NCBI GenBank assembly: GCA_048882025.1
Contig: JBHLSA010000002.1
Location: 1 to 41,433, forward strand
Source: Candidatus Thorarchaeota archaeon
GTDB taxonomy: Archaea > Asgardarchaeota > Hermodarchaeia > Hermodarchaeales > Hermodarchaeaceae
Length of the DNA stretch: 41,433 bases
Direction: 5' to 3'
Shown: positions 1,485-39,358 of the stretch, piece by piece
Numbering within the stretch: position 1 is the first letter of the stretch
How the letters are laid out: the number at the start of each line of letters is the position of its first letter
The notes under the pieces: model-generated
The model's database searches: none
What the model saw: the letters and a program-made list of their open reading frames with translations, nothing else
What the model was told of the DNA's origin: nothing
Made by a program: the position numbers and the translations under genes

Positions 1485-2717
1485 CTATTCCGTGTGTACA
1501 CGAAATAGGTCAATATCGCCTTGCATTTGGGTTAGAAACTCACGTGTTGAACGCTCAACATCATGAGATTGAGTGATGTACCGCCCAACCACGATAATGT
1601 CAGCTTTAGCTTTAAGCGCAGCTTGAATATTATCGGGGCGAATCCCACCCGCTACGGATACTAAGAGACGTTTACCCTTGAACGCGGTCTTAACTTCTTT
1701 CACAATTTCCCACTTGTGTTCAGCACGCCCCTCTGTATCAATACCCCGATGCATGATTACCACATTAGGTGGCATTTTCAGACTCTGAAGTTTGGCAATC
1801 GGATCTTCGACGTTCATCATATCGACAAATGAATAGATACCTAAACGGTTGGTTTCATAGATGAATTGATCAATTGTATCAACAGACGCTAAGCCTGCCA
1901 CAACGACTGCATCAGCTGATTCGTCAAAGGCTAAATCGACTTCGACCTTTCCTACATCCAAGGTCTTTAAATCAGCAACTAAAAACTTGTCTTTGGCGAC
2001 TTCGCGTAAATCGCTAAGAACGGCAGTTCCATACCGCTTAATAAGTGGAGTGCCTGCCTCCAAAATGAGATTATCACTCCGCGGTAAGGCAGCAATAATT
2101 TTCTTGGTTTTCTCAAGACTAGGGACATCTAAAGCAATTTGGAGGTAGGGTGGACGCCACAGTCTTGGTACTCGAAAGCCCATGATTGGATGGGTTGCAC
2201 GATCCTTATCATACATGATTTTATCCACAGGAGGATAACTTGAAAGGGCGCGTTGAATAGAAAGTTTTGTAGCTGCATAGTTGTAATGGTAAATTCTCCG
2301 ATAATCTTTCGCATCTGGATGAATAAAGACACTGCAAATAATTACCCATTCGTCAACTTTGGCTTTTGGAATTATGCCCTCTTCTAATGCGTCCGCCACA
2401 GCTTTTGCTACGGCAGCTTGGGCAGGTCCAAAGATTTTCTCGGCATCACCCATATCTTTAACGGTAACCTTCGGCACAATTAGGGTATGTGGTTTAGGGG
2501 GTAAATTGGGTCGAATTACTGCTAATAATGGAGAATGCCCATGCGAGACATTGGTCATTCCTTGGGCAAAAGCAGTTCCAACCGGACCTGACTTTTCACC
2601 AATAATGAGATCTATATGGGCTATTTCCGAGCCTTTGCCTATGAGAGCTTCACCAACTAAGTAGACCATTGGATCGCTTCCTTTATGGAGAAAGTAGCGA
2701 ATGTGTAAATCAGTCAT
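1485..2717 (-). CDS. fae-hps: Bifunctional formaldehyde-activating enzyme / 3-hexulose-6-phosphate synthase (Fae-Hps)
   Basis: The N-terminal part (VGEALIGKGSEIAHIDLIIGEKSGPVGTAF) is Fae-like. The C-terminal part (YLQIALDV.., KTLDVG, VAGGIRPDN, IIVVGRYIT) is an OMP-decarboxylase-fold HPS. The true start may be the internal ATG at 2669 (MVYLVGEAL). Confidence 0.9.
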   Translation of the reverse strand: MTDLHIRYFLHKGSDPMVYLVGEALIGKGSEIAHIDLIIGEKSGPVGTAFAQGMTNVSHGHSPLLAVIRPNLPPKPHTLIVPKVTVKDMGDAEKIFGPAQAAVAKAVADALEEGIIPKAKVDEWVIICSVFIHPDAKDYRRIYHYNYAATKLSIQRALSSYPPVDKIMYDKDRATHPIMGFRVPRLWRPPYLQIALDVPSLEKTKKIIAALPRSDNLILEAGTPLIKRYGTAVLSDLREVAKDKFLVADLKTLDVGKVEVDLAFDESADAVVVAGLASVDTIDQFIYETNRLGIYSFVDMMNVEDPIAKLQSLKMPPNVVIMHRGIDTEGRAEHKWEIVKEVKTAFKGKRLLVSVAGGIRPDNIQAALKAKADIIVVGRYITQSHDVERSTREFLTQMQGDIDLFRVHTE

Positions 2718-5253: not shown

Positions 5254-5300
5254 GGACACGAGAATTTGAAACCCTCGATGGTTCTCGTGTCCTTGGTTTT
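5254..5300. terminator. 11-bp inverted repeat hairpin plus T-rich tract between convergent genes
   Basis: GGACACGAGAA (5254-5264) pairs with TTCTCGTGTCC (5282-5292) and is followed by TTGGTTTTATTTT. It lies between the stops of 4850-5236 (+) and gap (-). Confidence 0.4.
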
Positions 5301-6306
5301 ATTTTAATTTGGAAGCAACTAATTGAGTTAGTTCAATTAATCGGTGACTGAATCCTGCTTCATTGTCATACCATGCGACAACATGAGCGAAATTGTTATC
5401 GAGTATTTCTGTGAGTTGACTGTCAAAGATTGATGAATGAGAATTGCCGATAATGTCAGTGGATACGATTGGATCTTCATTATATTGGAGAATGCCTTTG
5501 AGGTTGGTTTTCGCAGCGTGTTGAAAGGTTTGATTGATGTCTTCTTTGGACGCGTTCTTTTCAAGTGCAACACTTAGATCAATGATAGATCCATCAGGTA
5601 CGGGAACACGATAAGCCATAGCAGCCATTTTACCTTTTAGCTGTGGAAAGAGGCGAATGATAGCGTTAGCCGCGCCTGTTGTGGTTGGGAGAATGTTAAT
5701 TGCTGCAGCACGGGCACGGCGATAGTCTTTGTGGATGCCGTCTAGAAGGCTTTGATCAAGAGTATACCCATGAATTGTGGACATGAATCCATACTTGATT
5801 CCATATTTTTCAATAATTACTTTGATAACGGGAGCAAAACAATTTGTGGTGCATGACGCGTTTGAAATGACATGATGATTATCTGGATCGTACGTGTGAT
5901 CATTTACGCCGAGCACAAACATAGCATCTTCTCCTCGCCCAGGCGCTGAGATGATTACTTTGCGAGCCCCAGCTTCTAGATGAAGAGCAGCTTTTTCACG
6001 ATCCCGAAAAACACCAGTAGCTTCTATTGTAATGTCAACCTCGAGTTGTTTCCAAGGGAGCTGAGCGGGATTACGTTCTTGGAACAGTTTTACTGAATGA
6101 TTGTCGATGATTAGTTCATCTTTCTGAACATTGATAGAGCCAGAGAATTGCCCATGGACTGAGTCATATTTTAAAAGATGGGCTAGAATCTGTGGATCGC
6201 CTAAATCGTTTGCGGCAACAAGTTCGATGTCTTTAGCTTTCAGGACATTACGGAGGAAAAAGCGTCCAATTCGACCGAGACCATTGATAGCAACTTTTAC
6301 AGCCAT
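5299..6306 (-). CDS. gap: Class I (bacterial/eukaryotic-type) glyceraldehyde-3-phosphate dehydrogenase
   Basis: MAVKVAINGLGRIGR Rossmann N-terminus, active-site SNASCTTNC, and WYDNE near the C-terminus. The ATG at 6306 is preceded by GGAGGG. Confidence 0.9.
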   Translation of the reverse strand: MAVKVAINGLGRIGRFFLRNVLKAKDIELVAANDLGDPQILAHLLKYDSVHGQFSGSINVQKDELIIDNHSVKLFQERNPAQLPWKQLEVDITIEATGVFRDREKAALHLEAGARKVIISAPGRGEDAMFVLGVNDHTYDPDNHHVISNASCTTNCFAPVIKVIIEKYGIKYGFMSTIHGYTLDQSLLDGIHKDYRRARAAAINILPTTTGAANAIIRLFPQLKGKMAAMAYRVPVPDGSIIDLSVALEKNASKEDINQTFQHAAKTNLKGILQYNEDPIVSTDIIGNSHSSIFDSQLTEILDNNFAHVVAWYDNEAGFSHRLIELTQLVASKLK

Positions 6307-6428
6307 AAAGTATCCCTCCAAGGGGAATGACGATTCAATATATTATGGCTATAAGTGTTTCCGCATTTTTCGCTGAAAATAATTGGTAGATACCAAGGAA
6401 AGAGGGCTTCTATGCATTATGAGGTTTT

Positions 6429-6860
6429 CTAGAGTTGTTCAGTGATGCTTTCAGGGAGAGGCTCACGTGCTAATAGATAGATAACCGAGAGAAGGAAAAG
6501 ATCAAAGTCAGATAGCCCTTCAATGTTTGCCCAGGGTGTTGACTCGAGAGTGATACATAAAATTACGGGCTCTTTCTCTTCTTTGAGAGCAGATACGTGT
6601 CCCATTTTTAGGTCAATTTCAAAGGTGGCTTCATCCCTTGTAATCAACAAGCGGTTTCCTCGAATTTTGAAGCCTTCTGATTTCAATATTTGTTTCAAAC
6701 GTTCAAGGTTTCGACTTTGAGTAGGTTTTAGTTTTCCGGTAACCTGCAAGTCGCGTTTTCTTCGCAGATCATATAGCCACTCCTCACTTTGAATTTCATC
6801 ACCATTACTAGATGTTGATGAACGTTTTGTGGAACGCGTTGGATTGATGGATAGCCACAC
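6429..6860 (-). CDS. Hypothetical protein (143 aa) immediately downstream of the profilin-like gene
   Basis: ORF with a GTG start, 67 nt after the profilin stop on the same strand. Ser/Thr-rich basic N-terminus. No recognisable domain. Confidence 0.4.
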   Translation of the reverse strand: MWLSINPTRSTKRSSTSSNGDEIQSEEWLYDLRRKRDLQVTGKLKPTQSRNLERLKQILKSEGFKIRGNRLLITRDEATFEIDLKMGHVSALKEEKEPVILCITLESTPWANIEGLSDFDLFLLSVIYLLAREPLPESITEQL

Positions 6861-6927: not shown

Positions 6928-7299
6928 TTACATGAATCCTCCAATATTCGCTGATGCCTTAGCAACTTCAACGTAAGCACCTTGAACATCGCCTTGAGGA
7001 GACACATATGCAATTACGTACCCCTTATCCCGTGCGGCAGTGATAACTATTGAACCTTGGCCTCGAACATTTGTTGCGACTAGATGATGATCAGTAACCT
7101 GAATCGTGCTGTACTTGACTCCTTGAATTGTAATGCTGGGTGGTTTGTTTTGGATTGCGTTTAGAATATCAGCCCCAGTTATTGCCCAATTAGGAGTAGT
7201 GAACAGAACGGTTCCGTCTTTTCGGATAACCGAAACAGCCATGATTGTATTATCGACCTGCTGCATGTAGTTGACCCAGGCTTGGATATTATCAGACAT
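6928..7299 (-). CDS. Profilin-like protein (eukaryotic signature protein)
   Basis: 123 aa from the ATG at 7299. MSDNIQAWVNYMQQ.. (N-terminal W/Y), ..SITIQGVKYSTIQV.., ..GQGSIVITAARDKGYVIAYVSPQGD.. and a C-terminal helix ..YVEVAKASANIGGFM follow the profilin fold layout. Confidence 0.75.
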   Translation of the reverse strand: MSDNIQAWVNYMQQVDNTIMAVSVIRKDGTVLFTTPNWAITGADILNAIQNKPPSITIQGVKYSTIQVTDHHLVATNVRGQGSIVITAARDKGYVIAYVSPQGDVQGAYVEVAKASANIGGFM

Positions 7300-7386
7300 T
7301 TTCCGCCAACACCCATTCACTGCCAGATTCAAATGGTGCATAAGACATTTTTGATATCGCTTACTAAAAGCTTCTGGCAGATTAAA

Positions 7387-7668
7387 ATGATTGAGCCGCA
7401 CAATAAGGGAACCTTACTAAGTGTTCGTGTTAGACCTCGTTCAAAAAAACAAGCAATAATTTTGAATGAGGAAAATGAGTGTTATGTACATGTGAAGAGT
7501 GCCCCGCTACGTGGTCAAGCTAATTTGGAATTATTGAAACTATTTGCTAAAGTTCTCAAAGTTCCAACCGAACGAATCCATATTATTTCCGGTGAAAAAT
7601 CGCAAAATAAAACGCTCCTTATCGAAGCAGTAAAACCAAATATTGTACGTGCCGCTTTGAAAAAATGA
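7387..7668 (+). CDS. DUF167 / YggU (UPF0235) family protein
   Basis: LSVRVRPRSKKQAI..VHVKSAPLRGQANLELLKLFAKVLKVPTERIHIISGEKSQNKTLLIE is the conserved family pattern. I used the internal ATG at 7387 because the track start at 7282 would overlap the divergent profilin start. Confidence 0.8.
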   Translation: MIEPHNKGTLLSVRVRPRSKKQAIILNEENECYVHVKSAPLRGQANLELLKLFAKVLKVPTERIHIISGEKSQNKTLLIEAVKPNIVRAALKK

Positions 7669-14486: not shown

Positions 14487-14585
14487 TGGAGCCTCGAGCG
14501 GGGATTGAACCCGCGACCAGCAGCTTACTCGAAAATTTGTTGAATCTTATACGAGGCTGTCGCTCTACCACTGAGCTATCGAGGC
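14487..14585 (-). tRNA. tRNA-Thr(CGU) with a canonical 37/38 intron of about 24 nt; CCA encoded
   Basis: Minus-strand fold: GCCTCGA-TA-GCTC-AGTGGTA-GAGC-G-ACAGC-CTCGTA[TAAGATTCAACAAATTTTCGAGTA]A-GCTGC-TGGTC-GCGGG-TTCAATC-CCCGC-TCGAGGC-T-CCA. Confidence 0.8.
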
Positions 14586-17654: not shown

Positions 17655-18302
17655 CTATCGTTTTCCAAGCATTTTTTGAAGCGAACTTATACCCGTTAGC
17701 AAACGTCGGTTCTCGATTGCTGTATTGAGGTCCGCACGAGTTCTTTCAACTAGACCTCTTGCCACATCGGTTTTTCTTCTAACCCCAGGAGTCAAACCCT
17801 GTGGAAAATCAAAGGTCATTAGCACCGTGTAAATCGATTCCATCTGAGTGAACGCGCGTTTAGCTTCGTCTAAATTATCGTTTGTTAAAGAATCTAGAGC
17901 ATATCTCCGGAGTTCACCAACAAAGTCACCTAACCCCTGTAGATATCCAATATCGCTTATTCCGAATTCTTGAGGGGGTGGTGATTCCTGTTTTTCCAGA
18001 AAAGCCAGAAAAAGGCCAGCTTCTGCTAATTCCCCCTCCGCGTTATTTACTAGCCCTAATACAGGAAGTTGATTTAGTTTCTTTTGATGCTTTTGGGTAT
18101 CCTGTAACATGGATTGAGCATTTTTGATAGATGTTCGAGCTCTACTCATATCACCACGATGTATTGCAGAAATTGCCTCACGAGTTATTCTTAGCACTTT
18201 ATTCATTTCATCGATAAGATGGTCCCGTGATTTATTTTGGACCGCTAGTTTTTCATAGATTTGGTTCCCGATTTCTTGAATGCTCATAATCGAAGGCTCC
18301 AT
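17655..18302 (-). CDS. Translin/TRAX family protein
   Basis: YLQGLGDFVGELRRYALD and a helical repeat layout typical of the translin family. It lies 8 nt upstream of nfi on the same strand. Confidence 0.7.
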   Translation of the reverse strand: MEPSIMSIQEIGNQIYEKLAVQNKSRDHLIDEMNKVLRITREAISAIHRGDMSRARTSIKNAQSMLQDTQKHQKKLNQLPVLGLVNNAEGELAEAGLFLAFLEKQESPPPQEFGISDIGYLQGLGDFVGELRRYALDSLTNDNLDEAKRAFTQMESIYTVLMTFDFPQGLTPGVRRKTDVARGLVERTRADLNTAIENRRLLTGISSLQKMLGKR

Positions 18303-20025: not shown

Positions 20026-21063
20026 TTGAACCCATTTACAAAGCTAAAATATGTGTTAACCAGCAAGGAGCTTCTTGATGTAGCCTTTGCTCGTGCTTCA
20101 AAGATAACACTACCCAAATCGAAAAAGCCACCTCATATCCGTGCCCGTACTAAAGAGATTGCGAAGTTAAAGAAAGTCGAAGATAATCTCACTACACGAC
20201 TTGAAGACATAGTTCAGCGCTTTCCGAACTTTGATGAAATTCATCCTTTCTATCGTTCTCTTGCAGATACCGTTGTGACAATAGATGAGATTCGGCAGGC
20301 TCTTGCCTCAGTTTCGTCCGCAATTCGTATTATTAAGGAAATCATTCGTGAGAGCACTAGGAAGCTAAAGCGTGTAAAAACCCCAGATGAAGCAAGAAGG
20401 CTAAGAGCCGCTGCCTATGGACGCATCTCTTCTGTAATTAATCGATTAGAGCCACGTCTGGTTATTATCCAGCGAGCTGCAAATGAATACCGCCGTTTTC
20501 CATCAATCAATCTTAACTTACCAGTAATTGTTGTTGCAGGATATCCCAACGTAGGAAAGAGTTCACTTGTTGCGCTTATTTCGTCTGCTACTCCTGAAGT
20601 TGCTGAATACCCCTTCACAACAAAAAAAATTAGTGTAGGTCATATTCCAATCAATTCTTTTGAGGGACAGATTCTCGATGTTCCTGGCCTCCTTGATCGG
20701 CCAATGAAAAAGAGGAATCCAATTGAGCAAAGGGCCATTGCAGCAATTCAATACTTAGCAGATGTTATTTGTTTCTTAGTAGATCCAACTCTAAACTGTG
20801 GGTATGAGCTGAATAGCCAAGTTTCCTTACTTCACGAAATTACTTCAACATTTCCAGACTTGGAGATTTTTCCTATCTTGAATAAAGGTGACATTGCAAC
20901 AAAGGGAGAAATTACCACAGCATTGGACATAATAAATCTAGGAAACATTCCAAAAATTAGTACTCTAACTGAAGAGGGGGTTGAACAGGTGTTTCATGAC
21001 ATTATATCACATTCTAAGATGATTCAGAAGAAGCTGAAGAACCTTCATGCCCAATCCCTTTGA
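20026..21063 (+). CDS. NOG1-family GTPase
   Basis: NOG1 N-domain pattern (FPNFDEIHPFYRSLADT), G1 GYPNVGKSS, G2 YPFTT, G3 DVPGL. TTG start. Confidence 0.8.
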   Translation: MNPFTKLKYVLTSKELLDVAFARASKITLPKSKKPPHIRARTKEIAKLKKVEDNLTTRLEDIVQRFPNFDEIHPFYRSLADTVVTIDEIRQALASVSSAIRIIKEIIRESTRKLKRVKTPDEARRLRAAAYGRISSVINRLEPRLVIIQRAANEYRRFPSINLNLPVIVVAGYPNVGKSSLVALISSATPEVAEYPFTTKKISVGHIPINSFEGQILDVPGLLDRPMKKRNPIEQRAIAAIQYLADVICFLVDPTLNCGYELNSQVSLLHEITSTFPDLEIFPILNKGDIATKGEITTALDIINLGNIPKISTLTEEGVEQVFHDIISHSKMIQKKLKNLHAQSL

Positions 21064-25576: not shown

Positions 25577-26965
25577 GTGATTCAAGTTACTTTATTAGCA
25601 ATATCCGGACTTCTCGTAGCCTTTATTGTAACATTCATTGTGATGCCATATGTTATTAAAACGATGAAGAACCGAAAAATTACTGGTATTGATGTACACA
25701 AGCTGAATAAACCTGAAGTCGCCGAAATGGGTGGGATTGGAATCCTTTTTGGTGTAACCGCAGGCTGTTTAGTATTATTTATCGGAACCGGTCTTGTATA
25801 TCCCGGTCTCTTTGATTTCCGAATCATTATATTCCTTATAGTAATTCTTTTCGCTGGGCTTATTGGAGCTATTGATGATATCAAGACTCTTGGACCTAAA
25901 ATCAAACCTTTATTGACAGCACTGGCTTGCCTTCCAATTCTTGCTTATACGTGGATGATTAGCCTTTCAGTAATACCTCCGATCTTCATACCTGCATATA
26001 ACCCAGGTCCTTATCTACCATTCTTAGGTCAAACCCGACTGACAATTGTATACCCCCTTGTATTGATTCCATTGGGAATAGCAATAACTGCTAACTCTGT
26101 CAATATGATGGATGTCTTTAATGGCGTAATGCCGATAACTTCGGTAATTATGTTCGTGGCACTTCTTTTCGTCTCAGTGTTGATGTGGTTCATTGGAGTT
26201 TCTGAGGCTGGATTAGGCATTCTTTTCTCATGTGTAATGATTGGCACACTTCTTGCTTACTATTATTTCAATCGAAATCCGGCGAAAGTCTTTGCAGGTG
26301 ACACAGGATCCCTTCTAGTTGGAGCTGCTTTAGGTGCAATTGCTATAATGGGTCGGGTTGAAATTGTAGCTATTGTGGCGCTGTTACCAGCAATCATGAA
26401 TGCCTTCTATTGTCTAATTAGCAGTGGCGGTTTGTTAGAACGACGACAAATGAGAGAGAGACCTACAATTTTTCAAGAGGATGGACGTCTTGCAGCTTCA
26501 CGTGAGCCAACAGCGCCTCTTACTTTGAGTCGATTGGTATTAGCCAGAGGTCCCCTATCGGAACAACATATAATTTTGTCATTAGCAACCTTAACGTTAG
26601 CCAGCAGTCTTCTAGCAGTACTAACTGTATTTCTCATTCCCTTCGATGGTGGTTACCTGTTAATTTGGCCCTTTTCAATGAGCCTTGTCATTATCCCCTT
26701 TATTCTCATTCTTGGGGTGTATTTGATATTAAGAAAAATAGATCAACTCGGTTTGCGACTAGCGGGATTGATTTCTATAATGGTAGGAGTCTGGGCTCTT
26801 GGGATGGCTGGTTTTTGGCTTCTAGATTATTTGATATTTATTTTTCAGAACCCTTGGTGGCCTATAGCAGGAATTCTCTTTATTTTTGGATGGTTAGTCT
26901 TGTGGCACTTCTCAACGCGATTATATTTCCGTTCTGAAATCGGTAAAGCCAAGACTGTTACTTAG
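25577..26965 (+). CDS. aglH: UDP-GlcNAc:dolichyl-phosphate GlcNAc-1-phosphate transferase (AglH/ALG7, MraY-like GT4 family) with a C-terminal multi-TM extension
   Basis: IGAIDDIKTLG, NSVNMMDVFNG and FAGDTGSLLVG motifs. About 130 extra C-terminal residues contain further TM helices. GTG start. Confidence 0.85.
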   Translation: MIQVTLLAISGLLVAFIVTFIVMPYVIKTMKNRKITGIDVHKLNKPEVAEMGGIGILFGVTAGCLVLFIGTGLVYPGLFDFRIIIFLIVILFAGLIGAIDDIKTLGPKIKPLLTALACLPILAYTWMISLSVIPPIFIPAYNPGPYLPFLGQTRLTIVYPLVLIPLGIAITANSVNMMDVFNGVMPITSVIMFVALLFVSVLMWFIGVSEAGLGILFSCVMIGTLLAYYYFNRNPAKVFAGDTGSLLVGAALGAIAIMGRVEIVAIVALLPAIMNAFYCLISSGGLLERRQMRERPTIFQEDGRLAASREPTAPLTLSRLVLARGPLSEQHIILSLATLTLASSLLAVLTVFLIPFDGGYLLIWPFSMSLVIIPFILILGVYLILRKIDQLGLRLAGLISIMVGVWALGMAGFWLLDYLIFIFQNPWWPIAGILFIFGWLVLWHFSTRLYFRSEIGKAKTVT

Positions 26966-27788
26966 TCCGTTTCCTCACTGTAGCATGCTGCCAACGATAT
27001 TCAAAGCTTTGCTGAAAAATGGCAACAATACCTTCATTAGCTGAATAGCTTGGGCGATAAACGTACCGTGGTTGACTTTTTTCTCTCTTTGGAGACGCCC
27101 AGATGAGAAACACAACTCTTGAAGAATCAGCAAGCGTGCCTCTTACAGGAAACCGTAAATCAGCAGGTTGTTTCACACTAGCTCCTAATTTTCGAAGCTT
27201 CTGAACTGCAGTTCGTGTTGCTTCATGTTGCATATTCATAAGGACTCTTATCTTCACTCCTCTTTCGATGGCCTTAGCTAGATCATGTTGAACTGCATCA
27301 AACCAGCTGAAGATGTCAGTGAATATGTCAAGAGTCTTTCTGGCTTCAGAAATCAGGAGTTTAGTTTGTTTTTCAGTTATCGCTAAATTTTCCAAAGATT
27401 CCAAGAGATCCTCTGGTCGTATTCGAAGACGCTGACGCCAAAAAATTGGTGACAGAACTTCTTTAACTTCTAGACTTGTATCTTCCAATTGCTTAATCGA
27501 GTCTGCAATTGCACGTTTTCGTATTGTTATTAGTTTTCGAAGACCCTCATCAGGGCTAATTATTTCAAATTTTTTCGGACGGCCTTCAATAATGACAATA
27601 AGCCCAAGAGCTTTTAGACTTTCAAGGACTCCGTAAACTCGTGGAATGGGAATATTGGCTTTCCGAGCTACCTCCTCCGCACTCATTTGTGAGCCTTGCA
27701 CGAGAATAAGATAAGCTTGGGTTTCGTATTCGGTTAGGCCTAGTTGTCGGATTTTTTCAGCAGCTTCTTTCATTGTAAGGTTTCCCAT
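26958..27788 (-). CDS. TrmB-family transcriptional regulator
   Basis: LGLTEYETQAYLILVQGSQMSAEEVARKANIPIPRVYGVLESLKALGLI wHTH, plus a TrmB-type C-terminal domain. Confidence 0.8.
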   Translation of the reverse strand: MGNLTMKEAAEKIRQLGLTEYETQAYLILVQGSQMSAEEVARKANIPIPRVYGVLESLKALGLIVIIEGRPKKFEIISPDEGLRKLITIRKRAIADSIKQLEDTSLEVKEVLSPIFWRQRLRIRPEDLLESLENLAITEKQTKLLISEARKTLDIFTDIFSWFDAVQHDLAKAIERGVKIRVLMNMQHEATRTAVQKLRKLGASVKQPADLRFPVRGTLADSSRVVFLIWASPKREKSQPRYVYRPSYSANEGIVAIFQQSFEYRWQHATVRKRTK

Positions 27789-27895
27789 ATAGTGTGTTGA
27801 ACTTCTCCTAAATTATCGTTTCGAATAAACTGGTTTAAACGTAATATCGGTAACTTTTTAGGGTAAAAAAGTTTCTCTAGCATGAGGCGAAATCA

Positions 27896-28858
27896 ATGAA
27901 ACCCATAGGAGTTGGCGTTATTGGAATTGGGGCATGGGGAAAGAACCATATTCGCATCTTCTCCGAGCTGGAGGAGACTACGCTTGTCGCCATAGCCGAG
28001 CGGGATACCGAGCGAGGTAAAGCTTTTTCCAAAAAATATGACACCATTCATTATGCTAGTGCTGATGAATTATTCCGTCGGAACGACATTGATGCCGTAA
28101 CCATCTGCACACCAACAGTAACGCATGCCGATTTAGCATTGCAAGCGATTGAAGCTGGTAAACACCTACTTTTAGAGAAGCCTATGACGGAAACACTGCA
28201 GCAAGCCCAACGAGTAATTGATGCAGCAAAATCTGCAAAGGTGAGCGTGATGGTGGGCTTCGTTGAGCGATTCAATCCGTCAGTCGAAACCGCCACCCAA
28301 TTGATTGACCAAGGACAAGTAGGTGAACTGGTTTTAGGTTCTGCAAGACGTTTAGGTCCATTTGTACCAGGACGAGTGGCAGATATTGGAATAATAAAAG
28401 ATTTGGCTATTCATGATATCGATATTGCACGTTTTCTAGTTAAACAGGAAGCAACTTCGGTTTATGCTATTGCAGGTAGTCTTTATCATAAATATGAAGA
28501 TCATGCTAATCTGGTAATCCGTTTTGATGATAAGCCTACGTTTTTTCTTGAATGTAATTGGCTAACCCCACGAAAACTCCGAGGCCTTAGCATTACAGGC
28601 TCTGAAGGTGTTCTATCATTGGATTACATATCACAAGAGGTATCCTTAGGAACTAAACAGTGGGAGCAAAAATCCACGTCAACATGGGATGAGCCCTTGA
28701 AACGAGAACTTTCACATTTTGCCAAGTGCATAATAGACCACCAATTACCACTAACATCAGGAAATGACGGATTAGAAGCACTGCGAATTGCTGAGGCCGC
28801 ACTAGAAAGCGCCAAAAGTAAACGCATAATCCATCTTGAGGAGCTTCGTTCAAATTGA
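27896..28858 (+). CDS. Gfo/Idh/MocA-family NAD-dependent sugar-nucleotide oxidoreductase (WbpB-like)
   Basis: IGVGVIGIGAWGKNH Rossmann motif and EKPM motif. Its stop overlaps the start of the next gene (TTGA). Confidence 0.85.
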   Translation: MKPIGVGVIGIGAWGKNHIRIFSELEETTLVAIAERDTERGKAFSKKYDTIHYASADELFRRNDIDAVTICTPTVTHADLALQAIEAGKHLLLEKPMTETLQQAQRVIDAAKSAKVSVMVGFVERFNPSVETATQLIDQGQVGELVLGSARRLGPFVPGRVADIGIIKDLAIHDIDIARFLVKQEATSVYAIAGSLYHKYEDHANLVIRFDDKPTFFLECNWLTPRKLRGLSITGSEGVLSLDYISQEVSLGTKQWEQKSTSTWDEPLKRELSHFAKCIIDHQLPLTSGNDGLEALRIAEAALESAKSKRIIHLEELRSN

Positions 28859-29628
28859 ATGTAAAAGAAAAAGTTCATCCAAGCGCAGTAATAGAAAAAG
28901 AAGTAAAGTTGGCACCAGATTACACAGTAGAGCCTTATGTGTTCTTAAGAGGAAAGATCCAAGCTGGAAAACGATGCTATTTTAGCACGGGATGTAAAAT
29001 ACAAGGTCCTGCAAATATTGGTAACAATGTATTTTTTGGTGAACAAACCACAATAGGTTTCCCAACTCAACATCAAATCGAGCAATACCAAAAAGAAAAG
29101 AAAGCGTCACCATGGATGAATTCTGAATTAACAGAGATAGGAGATGACTGTATTATACGTGCAGGATCGGTTCTCTATTCAAGTTCAAAATTAGGGAATA
29201 ACGTCAGGATAGGTCACAATGTATTGCTACGCGAAAATGTCCAAATTGGAGACAATTCCCTAGTGGGAACGAGCGTCACTATTGATGGCAATTCATCAAT
29301 TGGAAAGAAAGTATCAATTCAGACAAACGTTTACATTCCCTGGAATACTATTATTGAAGACCACGTCTTTCTTGGTCCTCATTGTGTCCTTACAAATGAC
29401 AAATATGTCATGCGAACTCATTTTGAACTTAAAGGCCCAATCATTCGGAGAGGAGTTAGCATCGGAGCTGGAGCTGTAATATTACCAGCAATTGAGATTG
29501 GTGAGAAAGCAGTTATTGGAGCTGGAGCTGTTGTTACCAAAAATGTTCCTCCAAAAACAATTGTTCATGGTGTTCCAGCTCGGGTACAATCTGTTATTCC
29601 AGAAAACTGGAAGATACCGTTAGAATAG
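28855..29628 (+). CDS. Hexapeptide-repeat (left-handed beta-helix) acetyltransferase (WbpD-like)
   Basis: Repeated [LIV]-G-x4 hexapeptides (IGDNSLVGTSVTIDGNSSIGKKVSIQ.., VSIGAGAVILPAIEIGEKAVIGAGAVV). TTG start. Confidence 0.8.
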   Translation: MNVKEKVHPSAVIEKEVKLAPDYTVEPYVFLRGKIQAGKRCYFSTGCKIQGPANIGNNVFFGEQTTIGFPTQHQIEQYQKEKKASPWMNSELTEIGDDCIIRAGSVLYSSSKLGNNVRIGHNVLLRENVQIGDNSLVGTSVTIDGNSSIGKKVSIQTNVYIPWNTIIEDHVFLGPHCVLTNDKYVMRTHFELKGPIIRRGVSIGAGAVILPAIEIGEKAVIGAGAVVTKNVPPKTIVHGVPARVQSVIPENWKIPLE

Positions 29629-29770
29629 GTGATACCAGAACCCAAATATGGATATACCTTGAAATCTAAACGGAGAATGTCGGTTAGAATATTGAGTTTG
29701 CTAGTTTTCATTGTAAATAAGAGAATGCTTATATACGTGAAAATAATCGACAAATCGAAATCCGGTATCG

Positions 29771-31504
29771 GTGAGTGACAGCGTGAAAACCAGAGCTTTA
29801 CTACTACTTGTGCTAATATGCTTACCATTGGCCTTTGTATTCATCCCGCCTACAAGTGCAGATTCTTCGCAATTGGTAATTGATGAAGCCCAGCGCGATG
29901 TTGAACTTCAAATTTATGGAATGATCCTTGTAACTGATACTATTACAATTAGTAATCTAGGGCCTGTACCGGCTTTCAATATTATGGCTGCTTATCCATT
30001 AGCTGAAATAAAAAATGTTAAAGAATTTACAGCAGCGACAATTAATGGAACTAGCCTCTACCACCAAAGGATCGCGCGCATTGGTCCAAATTGCACTGGA
30101 TGGCAAGTCTTCCTAGCCGAGCCCTTAATGCCAGAACAAACTGTAACATTTACAGTTCAGATGGCTATTGAGGGACTAGTCACAATAGACGAAACAACAG
30201 CAACGGCAAGCATACCAATAATCGTTACAAGCCCATACAACATTACTAGTTACTCAACTAGATTGACTTACCATGATGCGCTAACAGCACCAACGCAAAC
30301 TAGCTGGACTGGAGATTCAGTTCACCCCTACAGTTTTGAGCTCCGGGCAGTTATCTTAGACCACATCACTGATGATTTTGCACCAATTATTTCGTATTTA
30401 GAGCTTAAGCGAACCTTCTATATTGATGCGTGGGGCTATTTGTTTGCTCAAGAAGCACATATGTTTCGCCTTGAAAGCGTTAACCCAAGATTTACAAATT
30501 CAGAACGGCGCTGGAATTCACTCACTGTCACTTTACCAGCAGGAAGTGAATTTCTTCGAGTCTTTGATAACATTGCCAACTTATCAAATAGCCGAATAGA
30601 AACACCCACCAATGTAACTCACCCAGGGTCGATTGCGGTTCAATTACGATATCATCTCGAAGAAGGAGATGTATACCAGTTTTTCCTTGAATACCGAATT
30701 CCCTTAGACCTTCGACAACTCGTATTACAAACAGGTCAAGCCTTATTTTTTGAACCCTATTATAAAGAGCCGTGGATAATCCGAAACCAAATTACTGAAT
30801 TTATTCTTCCATCAGGGAGCTGGTTACAAGGAGTACCTATTGACGCAGAAACAACCTCAACGCCCACAGGACAGTATTTGATTAGCTTCTCAGCTCAAAA
30901 CGTGACCTCACTTCATCAGTCCAATCTAAGTCTTTTCTATGTTTACCCTGTTCTTCCTGCTCTAGCCCGACCGATGCTTTTCTTCGTAGTTATTGGGGCA
31001 GCCTGTCTAGTGTATATAACAGCTCGACGAGTTTCCTTCTTCCGTGAAGAAGAGGAAATTATTGCACCCACAATAGAAATAGATCCGATTATTCTGGACG
31101 AATTCTGTACTTTCTATGGAGAGAAAATTGCGCTATTATTGCAAACAGAAAAACTAGAACAGACTATGCTGCAGGGTAAGATATCGAAACCCAGATATCG
31201 AAAAGAGAAGAAGAACTTCGAGCGAAAAATTCGTGCAATTGACCGAGAACTCAGCACTCGTAGCCAACCTCTTATCGAGGCTGGAGGCAAATATGAATCA
31301 GCCGTTCGACAACTAGAGCTACTCGAGGCAGAACGCGTTAGTTCAATTGAAGCACTACACGCCCTTGAACAGCGATACCGCCAGAAACGAATTACAGCTC
31401 AAGTTTACCAAAAGCTACAAAAAGATCTTCAAAAACGGCGAGATAAAGCAGTTGGACGAATGGACCGTATCTTACTTAGTTTACGCGAAGAACTAGCATT
31501 ATAA
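29771..31504 (+). CDS. Ribophorin I / OST1-like type I membrane protein with a long helical cytosolic tail
   Basis: Signal peptide, a roughly 365-aa ectodomain with seven N-x-S/T sequons, a single TM (PMLFFVVIGAACLVYITA) and a roughly 155-aa charged helical tail. Blocks QRDVELQIYGMILVTDTITISNLG, KRTFYIDAWGYLFAQEAHMF, LPAGSEFLRVFDNIANLSNS and VQLRYHLEEGDVYQFFLEYRIPL parallel ribophorin I blocks as I recall them (KRTVDL.., [57 protein letters not shown]). Confidence 0.6.
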   Translation: MSDSVKTRALLLLVLICLPLAFVFIPPTSADSSQLVIDEAQRDVELQIYGMILVTDTITISNLGPVPAFNIMAAYPLAEIKNVKEFTAATINGTSLYHQRIARIGPNCTGWQVFLAEPLMPEQTVTFTVQMAIEGLVTIDETTATASIPIIVTSPYNITSYSTRLTYHDALTAPTQTSWTGDSVHPYSFELRAVILDHITDDFAPIISYLELKRTFYIDAWGYLFAQEAHMFRLESVNPRFTNSERRWNSLTVTLPAGSEFLRVFDNIANLSNSRIETPTNVTHPGSIAVQLRYHLEEGDVYQFFLEYRIPLDLRQLVLQTGQALFFEPYYKEPWIIRNQITEFILPSGSWLQGVPIDAETTSTPTGQYLISFSAQNVTSLHQSNLSLFYVYPVLPALARPMLFFVVIGAACLVYITARRVSFFREEEEIIAPTIEIDPIILDEFCTFYGEKIALLLQTEKLEQTMLQGKISKPRYRKEKKNFERKIRAIDRELSTRSQPLIEAGGKYESAVRQLELLEAERVSSIEALHALEQRYRQKRITAQVYQKLQKDLQKRRDKAVGRMDRILLSLREELAL

Positions 31505-38454: not shown

Positions 38455-38904
38455 TTAGCTAGGAGTTTCCTCTGCTTTGGTTTTTTGTTCTTCGATGAAG
38501 CGAGTGTATATTTTTCTTATGCGATCAGCAAGTGGACCTGTCCCTTCTACCCCTTCTTCGGTTAAACGAACCTTGTTTAGCACAACAATGACACGTGCGT
38601 CTTCAAGGAATCTGACCTCTCCAGGAGGAAAGAGTGTTTCGAGTTGTTCAGCCAGCCCCTTCAAGTCAAATGGATCTTCGGTCTTGACGAGTTCTAATAT
38701 CGTATGGCCCGTAACCACAATCTTGTGGTAGACCGTGCCTTTTGAGTCACGCGCATCAGACAATACAACACTTAACGTAGCAGGATCATAACCTCGCATT
38801 TTTCCAGTGAGAGATTTTCCTGTATTTGTACTAATAACCACAGTTGCTCCAATCAAAGAGGCTAGTTCTTTGAAAAAATGTCGAGCCCCAGTACTTTGTG
38901 CCAT
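38455..38904 (-). CDS. Sm-like (LSm) protein with a C-terminal extension domain (SmAP3-type architecture)
   Basis: Sm1 is LIGATVVISTNTGKSLTGKMRGYDPATLSVVLSDA and Sm2 is YHKIVVTGHTILEL, followed by a roughly 75-aa extra domain. The ATG is preceded by GAGGAAA. Confidence 0.7.
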   Translation of the reverse strand: MAQSTGARHFFKELASLIGATVVISTNTGKSLTGKMRGYDPATLSVVLSDARDSKGTVYHKIVVTGHTILELVKTEDPFDLKGLAEQLETLFPPGEVRFLEDARVIVVLNKVRLTEEGVEGTGPLADRIRKIYTRFIEEQKTKAEETPS

Positions 38905-39001: not shown

Positions 39002-39358
39002 GTGAATTCTTTGGTCTCGGGTACGGGAGTTATTGAAAAACGGGAAACCACACAAACTCAAATTATTCAGTATTTTGTTAAAGTTAATAAAAGGTTTCAA
39101 GTTGATTTTGAATTACCAGCTAGTGAAAGTGCACTCGAAGGAGGACAGAAAGTCACAATCGCAATTAATACAAGTAAACCAAAAAAATCCAATGCCCTCC
39201 TAACACTTCGGGGTGAGGTGTACCAAATAGAAAAAACTAGTGCGGGAATTAGGTATATCATATTTTTCTCTGGTTTACAAGGAAGTATAGTTGCAAAACG
39301 TGGAATTACCGGGCTAAAGACTAAGAAAACAATTTATCTATCAATTTCAAAACGATGA
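39002..39358 (+). CDS. Putative RNA polymerase subunit Rpo8 (RpoG/Rpb8-like)
   Basis: 118 aa. ..RFQVDFELPAS..GQKVTIAINTS.., LRGEVYQIEK....IRYIIFFSGLQGSIVA....KTIYLSISK parallels Rpb8/RpoG (YGKVYRIE....YVSYGGLLMRLQG....VYLLMKK). GTG start. Confidence 0.5.
   Translation: MNSLVSGTGVIEKRETTQTQIIQYFVKVNKRFQVDFELPASESALEGGQKVTIAINTSKPKKSNALLTLRGEVYQIEKTSAGIRYIIFFSGLQGSIVAKRGITGLKTKKTIYLSISKR

Follow-up and report, generated by a model that had tools for sequence, protein, structure and literature searches.

Profilin is a eukaryotic signature protein, and through it the Asgard archaea are connected with the way in which the actin cytoskeleton of eukaryotes arose; poxviruses and a few cyanobacteria have profilins too. 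The prediction of Asgard profilins dates from 2015-2017, and members of the family were solved and assayed in 2018-2022. Odin profilin is said to have been crystallised on rabbit actin by Akil and Robinson, in Nature in 2018. The Loki, Odin, Thor and Heimdall profilins all inhibit the polymerisation of rabbit actin and all respond to PIP2 (PMC8410842; bioRxiv 10.1101/2021.08.06.455371). Polyproline is bound by the Heimdall and Thor profilins and not by those of Loki or Odin (PMC8410842), and the N-terminal extension of the Thor and Heimdall proteins is implicated in this binding (PMC8410842; bioRxiv 10.1101/2021.08.06.455371).

Hermodarchaeota are already among the listed profilin-encoding lineages (PMC8410842). 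In the literature on this lineage, the main text of the Liu et al. preprint does not mention profilin, and the ISME J paper contains only the word 'profiling'. As a family the Asgard profilins are established; five of their structures have been solved, and actin assays have been published. With Hermodarchaeota listed among the encoders as well, the Hermodarchaeia (Hermod) gene described here is an expected orthologue, of an already known kind. Its Hermod-specific aromatic residues (W-x-x-Y and GGFM) and the orphan gene invariably linked to it downstream are mildly new.

The window, i.e. the whole stretch of DNA that was analysed, is 41,433 nucleotides long. A first-pass annotation made from its letters had proposed a profilin gene, which we consider almost certain to encode an Asgard profilin of the short Odin type, in a Hermodarchaeia archaeon; the protein most likely binds monomeric actin. 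The features of the locus are as follows.

6928-7299, minus strand: profilin coding sequence, 123 codons plus the TAA stop (6928-6930), start codon ATG at 7299-7297; supported by PDB and Pfam matches, an AlphaFold2 model, Foldseek and purifying selection.
7310-7314, minus strand: Shine-Dalgarno-like GGGTG, 10 nt 5' of the ATG, from an alignment of 15 orthologous upstream regions.
7300-7386: divergent spacer between the profilin and DUF167 genes, 87 nt, its length and sequence kept across Hermod loci.
7387-7668, plus strand: DUF167/YggU gene (Pfam PF02594, E 4e-20), in the same place and orientation in 15/15 Hermod loci, with no known link to profilin.
6429-6860, minus strand: orphan ORF, on the same strand as profilin and 67 nt 3' of it, directly after profilin in 15/15 Hermod loci.

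Translation from the ATG at 7299 gives a product of 123 aa, MSDNIQAWVNYMQQVDNTIMAVSVIRKDGTVLFTTPNWAITGADILNAIQNKPPSITIQGVKYSTIQVTDHHLVATNVRGQGSIVITAARDKGYVIAYVSPQGDVQGAYVEVAKASANIGGFM. Compared by phmmer with all PDB chains, this protein had only five matches, every one an Asgard profilin: Odin profilin 5ZZA_P (E 6.3e-26, residues 16-119 aligned), Thor profilin 7PBH (E 5e-16), Loki profilin-2 5ZZB (E 1.6e-11), Loki profilin-1 5YED/5YEE (E 1.5e-10) and Heimdall profilin 6YRR (E 3.6e-6). The Pfam profilin family PF00235, to which the first-pass annotation had pointed, was matched with E 2.7e-5 and 24.7 bits (residues 8-112 against profile positions 3-114 of 127); as the gathering cut-off is 25 bits, this match is significant by its E-value although 0.3 bit below the curated cut-off. 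The same family was matched by 22 of the 23 close homologues at E<=0.01 (best 1.1e-6). These results establish homology to profilins.

A search of 5.8 billion proteins recovered 22 relatives at E<=1e-14, and 1.84 billion cluster representatives, searched exhaustively with an HMM, yielded only 132 clusters at E<=0.001, four of which were at E<=1e-30. As a sequence family this is a small one, in which the Hermod group makes up one 50% cluster. Some public records leave the profilin homologues unnamed or call them 'hypothetical protein', and one says Roadblock; for this protein, unnamed or mislabelled in several records, the present analysis gives the correct gene boundaries. Elsewhere among the profilin-domain proteins collected, 61 of 153 (~40%) were at least 160 aa long. 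In many of these long proteins, found among P0026-P0096 and encoded outside the window, a low-complexity linker precedes a conserved C-terminal module of ~45 aa, with the consensus IDPxLKxEIExFLxWIKxPxGLxxYIxYY..ND..I..LA.IY..FRQIF. Proline-rich stretches precede the profilin domain in two proteins (P0053 and P0058).

The AlphaFold2 model, built from the 23-sequence alignment, had a pLDDT of 84.7 and a pTM of 0.79. It has the fold that a profilin assignment calls for: seven strands (19-26, 31-34, 55-58, 61-68, 72-76, 83-89 and 93-99) lie between an N-terminal helix (2-15) and a C-terminal helix (105-119), with an internal helix at 42-51. In a Foldseek comparison with the PDB, the model superposed on Odin profilin in its actin complex with E 2.6e-14, TM 0.90/0.93 and an rmsd of 1.2 Å; TM values were 0.88-0.89 for the Loki profilins, 0.77 for Thor, 0.71 for Heimdall, 0.80 for yeast, 0.77 for Acanthamoeba and 0.70 for bovine profilin (2BTF). 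The best 20 matches were profilins without exception. Thus the best matches in sequence and in structure are Asgard profilins solved by crystallography or NMR, with eukaryotic profilins next (TM 0.70-0.80), and the identification made in the first-pass annotation holds; neither of the outcomes named there as contradicting it, a missing profile match or a missing profilin fold, was seen. Its statement that profilin outside eukaryotes is established essentially only in Asgard archaea was slightly too strong, a poxvirus profilin (4QWO) being among the Foldseek matches. The central motifs that it named are all present (G60-V61-K62-Y63, G80-Q-G-S-I-V-I86 and G93-Y-V-I-A-Y-V99); G120-G-F-M123 is present too, not at the end of the C-terminal helix where it had been placed but just after it.

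The mechanically called ORF (6928-7401, minus strand) opens at a GTG at 7401, 34 codons 5' of the ATG at 7299. As the DUF167 gene starts with an ATG at 7387, this extension overlaps the first 15 nt of the divergent gene, as had been pointed out in the first-pass annotation. Nineteen of the 23 database proteins in the alignment are exactly 123 aa long, the window product counted among them, and two longer homologue calls (140 and 136 aa) have unrelated N-terminal extensions. In the 40 in-frame codons 5' of the ATG, stops occur in 11 of the 15 Hermod loci and no conservation is seen at the protein level; the long ORF from the GTG at 7401, unconserved in its extension, interrupted by stops in these 11 loci and overlapping DUF167, was rejected, and these same stops show the spacer at 7300-7386 to be non-coding. 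Where the window has GGGTG, the orthologous loci have GAGAGGTG, 10-11 nt before the profilin ATG (upstream-region alignment, n = 15). This GGGTG/GAGAGGTG motif, which we take to be complementary to the archaeal 16S 3' end, is a putative ribosome-binding (Shine-Dalgarno) site. The conserved length, the interrupted upstream frame and the conserved Shine-Dalgarno-like motif together show that the gene starts at the ATG at 7299, the start codon originally chosen. Two further blocks of the spacer are conserved, CTTTTAGTAAG (7370-7360, minus strand) and ATATCAAAAATGTCTTAT (7357-7340); they are candidate BRE/TATA elements of the profilin and DUF167 genes.

When one genome per GTDB species was scanned, 16 profilin loci were obtained, 15 of which were 68-93% identical to the window profilin. 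Compared with these 15 loci, the gene showed ~80% nucleotide identity versus ~91% amino-acid identity, and nearly all substitutions fell at third codon positions (in locus L001, differences by codon position were 5/3/64). The profilin gene is under strong purifying selection. The 15 close MAGs are labelled mostly Candidatus Hermodarchaeota, Hermodarchaeum yapensis, 'Hermod' or Promethearchaeota, with one labelled Odinarchaeota and two 'uncultured archaeon'. In all 15, the genes follow one order: radical-SAM, ATP-dependent DNA ligase, DUF167 (divergent), profilin, orphan ORF, GAPDH and a small HTH-like ORF, the neighbouring genes being 45-81% identical. The 16th locus, from Candidatus Atabeyarchaeum deiterrae, is 44% identical; only the ligase is kept beside profilin there, and the orphan ORF is absent. 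A chance ORF or a eukaryotic contamination was ruled out by the conserved synteny and the third-position substitutions. Because the genomes are closely related, the synteny is of little functional weight. The GAPDH gene, which is kept beside the profilin block in all Hermod loci, lies at 5299-6321 (minus strand) in the window; it has the class-I (bacterial/eukaryotic-type) signature SNASCTTNC and strong Gp_dh_N and Gp_dh_C matches. A class-I rather than an archaeal class-II enzyme would presumably suggest an acquired gene.

The profilin gene is placed among unrelated housekeeping genes. The window encodes a thermosome, a proteasome beta subunit, PAC2, a NOG1 GTPase, RtcA, Taw1 and arcTGT, together with Lsm, endonuclease V and a MutS-domain protein (MutS_V + HhH). 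Judged by their matches, the thermosome, the proteasome beta subunit and the Ribophorin-I-like and Rpb8/RpoG-like proteins are archaeal/Asgard markers. From this gene content and the shared synteny, it follows that the window comes from a Hermodarchaeia (Asgard) genome; the Asgard origin deduced earlier from the profilin signature is thereby confirmed by the nearest loci, which are mostly Hermodarchaeota/Promethearchaeota MAGs with a common gene order. Search for actin, gelsolin or Arp genes had been proposed for the contig or genome; it was run by Pfam on the 41-kb window, and none of the ORFs of at least 90 aa there matched an actin, gelsolin or Arp domain.

Several other genes of the window were observed. 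An apparent N-glycosylation cluster extends over 25577-31504, on both strands, with a GT4 (ALG7/AglH-like) glycosyltransferase at 25577-26965, a GFO/IDH/MocA oxidoreductase, a hexapeptide acyltransferase and, at 29771-31504, a protein of 577 aa that matches Ribophorin I (PF04597, E 9.5e-10), itself another Asgard eukaryotic signature protein. At 39002-39358 (plus strand) and 38455-38904 (minus strand), a weak RNA polymerase subunit G/Rpb8-like match (PF16992, E 8.5e-5, below the cut-off) adjoins an Lsm + Lsm_C protein; archaeal Rpb8 homologues are of evolutionary interest. Two genes encode eukaryote-like RNA or ribosome-biogenesis factors, a Translin-family protein (17655-18302, minus strand, E 2.9e-8) and the NOG1-type GTPase (20026-21063, plus strand; NOG1_N, MMR_HSR1 and NOG1 domains). 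A fusion of Fae (formaldehyde-activating enzyme) with an OMPdecase/HUMPS-family domain (1485-2717, minus strand) is of the Fae-Hps type, typical of the archaeal ribulose-monophosphate pathway. At 14490-14585 (minus strand), Rfam identifies a tRNA (57.4 bits, 96 nt) and ARAGORN finds none; this is probably an intron-containing archaeal tRNA.

The orphan ORF, possibly co-transcribed with profilin, has a conserved core of ~115 aa (...LRRKRDLQVTGKPKP...RNLERLKQILKSEGFKIRGNRLLI...EATFEVDLKMGHV...LCVTLES.PWAN...LSDFDLFLLSVIYLLAREPLP.SI.EQL). Its 53 homologues are all unnamed or called 'hypothetical protein'. The Pfam search gave no match (best SAP, E 0.041), nor did comparison with PDB sequences, and Foldseek returned nothing at E<=0.001 with an AlphaFold2 model of pLDDT 73, the core of which (residues 50-100) reached a pLDDT of ~90. 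The orphan ORF was considered as an actin-related partner and rejected, as no Pfam, PDB-sequence or Foldseek match pointed there. Its start is uncertain: where most orthologues have their ATG, the window has CTA, and in some loci a stop lies just 5' of the conserved I-S-I-N-P. In one Hermod MAG (L008, 6423-6875), the orphan frame has an in-frame stop, GV*ISINP, where the other loci have Cys or Trp, which suggests that translation would start downstream, or that 'GV[CW]' may really be a ribosome-binding sequence (GGNGTGTG).

Conservation was measured in 128 relatives with a profilin domain that do not belong to the close Hermod group. It peaks at T35-x-N37-W38 (W in 94%), G60-V-K62-Y63-S64 (Y or F in 98%), L73-V-A-T-N77, G80-x-G82 (91%) and P101. 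For comparison with eukaryotic proteins, human PFN1 and Acanthamoeba profilin IA were used (100% matches to 4X1L_A and 1PRQ_A, respectively). In hhalign, the conserved segments pair tentatively, at low probability, with strands beta4-beta6 of the eukaryotic actin-binding face. Against eukaryotic profilins, the Hermod-only profile reached a probability of 9.5% and the profile of the 143-sequence family one of 3.4%, and because of these low values residue equivalences to the eukaryotic actin, lipid and polyproline sites are tentative. K62, where 78% of the family have K or R, aligns by phmmer with the lysine of the Odin GVKYS motif. If the numbering of the crystallised chain is shifted by two residues, this lysine appears to be Odin K58, the counterpart of human K69 and like it predicted to contact PIP2 (PMC8410842).

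In the mechanism that we propose, Hermod profilin would bind the organism's Lokiactin-type monomeric actin at its barbed-end face, with strands beta4-beta6 and the first part of the C-terminal helix as the contact surface. Binding would dampen spontaneous nucleation and act as a buffer for the pool of monomers; phosphoinositide-like acidic lipids of the membrane would probably compete via the conserved Lys62, causing the profilin to be released. Actin binding is expected because the protein is 38% identical, in the Foldseek alignment, to Odin profilin, whose crystal structure is of a complex with rabbit actin. The lipid regulation and the identity of the actin partner, which the window does not encode, are likewise proposed; the partner should be present in the Hermod genome because Lokiactin is reported to be conserved in all Asgard classes (PMC9834061).

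Two other readings of the gene were weighed. It might encode a Roadblock/LC7/MglB-type regulator domain of small GTPases instead of a profilin, since the Roadblock fold is a similar alpha-beta-alpha sandwich, abundant in Asgard archaea. Foldseek does list the Prometheoarchaeum Roadblock3 homodimer 9JUE (E 2e-5), but its chains superpose with TM 0.57-0.70 and an rmsd of 4.7-7.0 Å, compared with TM 0.90 and 1.2 Å for Odin profilin. A JGI record for P0013, a homologue with 74% identity, bears the name 'predicted regulator of Ras-like GTPase activity (Roadblock/LC7/MglB family)', whereas no Roadblock Pfam family was matched at E<=10 by the window protein or at E<=0.01 by the 23 members, 22 of which matched Profilin, and five of five PDB sequence matches were profilins. 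A Roadblock domain is extremely improbable.

The profilin fold could also have been kept while its function drifted away from actin, towards a lineage-specific adaptor that would act, for example, with the downstream orphan ORF. The linkage of this same-strand ORF in 15 of 15 Hermod loci is compatible with such a drift; it holds, however, among close relatives only, and Atabeyarchaeum has no orphan beside profilin. The window has no actin-system genes nearby, and the protein has the Hermod-specific W8 and Y11 and has lost the W49 found in 71% of relatives; yet GVKYS, LVATN and GQG are intact and aligned to the actin-binding strands, and every Asgard profilin tested so far affects actin (PMC8410842). 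We consider such a loss of the actin function very unlikely, and retain an actin-binding profilin as the reading of the gene.

The N-terminal helix of this profilin contains W8 and Y11, three residues apart (AWVNY), as noted in the first-pass annotation, where they were read as the profilin N-terminal pattern. They are probably not the canonical Trp3/Tyr6 pair: the alignments put W8 at Tyr6 and I5 at Trp3. Thus, by phmmer W8 lies opposite Thor Y28, and Thor Y28 and V24 correspond to human Y6 and W3, respectively (bioRxiv 10.1101/2021.08.06.455371); in a global hhalign alignment of low probability, A7-W8-V9-N10-Y11-M12 lies opposite A-Y6-I-D-N-L10, with I5 at Trp3. In the 128 Asgard relatives, position 8 is mostly I, A or V and position 11 mostly N, E or K, so that W8 and Y11 are a peculiarity of the Hermod group. 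WxxY was rejected as a family signature, W..[YF] occurring within the first 25 residues in only one (P0095) of ~130 non-Hermod relatives. Position 49, W in 71% of relatives, is I in the window protein, and W8/Y11 may possibly represent a core swap with W49.

An aromatic polyproline groove between the two terminal helices is a defining feature of eukaryotic profilins, and the Loki and Odin proteins do not have it. In human profilin it consists of W3, Y6, W31, H133 and Y139; in the Hermod protein the aromatics W8, Y11, F33 and F122 are present, with W8 aligned at Y6. It is conceivable, although in our view rather unlikely, that Hermodarchaeia profilins independently gained or uniquely retained a eukaryote-like aromatic polyproline groove made of W8-x-x-Y11, F33 and the terminal ...IGGFM. 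If so, formin/VASP-like recruitment through polyproline would be possible where it is unexpected, by a eukaryote-like and not a Heimdall-like mechanism, and the groove would exist in a minimal, Odin-sized profilin devoid of the N-terminal extension that is implicated in the binding of polyproline by the Thor and Heimdall proteins.

The Hermod protein was compared with the profilins already described, among them those of eukaryotes (yeast 1YPR, Acanthamoeba 1ACF, human PFN1). It shares the architecture of the eukaryotic proteins (TM 0.70-0.80), the PF00235 match and, in the low-probability hhalign alignment, a local N-helix pattern A-[WY]-[VI]-[ND]-x-[ML], and its C-terminal IGGFM resembles the '...IGQGF' of Acanthamoeba. 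It differs from them by an identity of 13-18% and by an apparent Ile5 at the Trp3 position, and their aromatic polyproline groove is not demonstrably conserved in it. With the Thor (7PBH) and Heimdall LC3 (6YRR) profilins it has in common the profilin fold and the conserved core; these two proteins carry a flexible N-terminal extension of ~20-24 residues, whereas the Hermod protein begins at the N-terminal helix. Loki profilin-1 and -2 (5YED/5YEE, 5ZZB) have the same fold (TM 0.88-0.89); they are 136 aa long and have an insertion after the internal helix, the 'Loki-loop', which the Hermod protein lacks, as shown by gaps against 5ZZB.

The closest described protein is Odin profilin (5ZZA chain P), from another Asgard class. 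The identity in the structural alignment is 38%, the Hermod N-terminal helix (1-15) is not alignable by sequence, and W8-x-x-Y11 and the C-terminal GGFM are missing from the aligned Odin part. The two proteins are nevertheless of the same length class (123 aa versus 119-121 aa for Odin), neither has a Loki-loop or an N-terminal extension, and the motifs PNW, IQGVKYS, ATNV-GQG and YVSP-GD occur in both; on these alignments, Hermod profilin is a short profilin of the Odin type.
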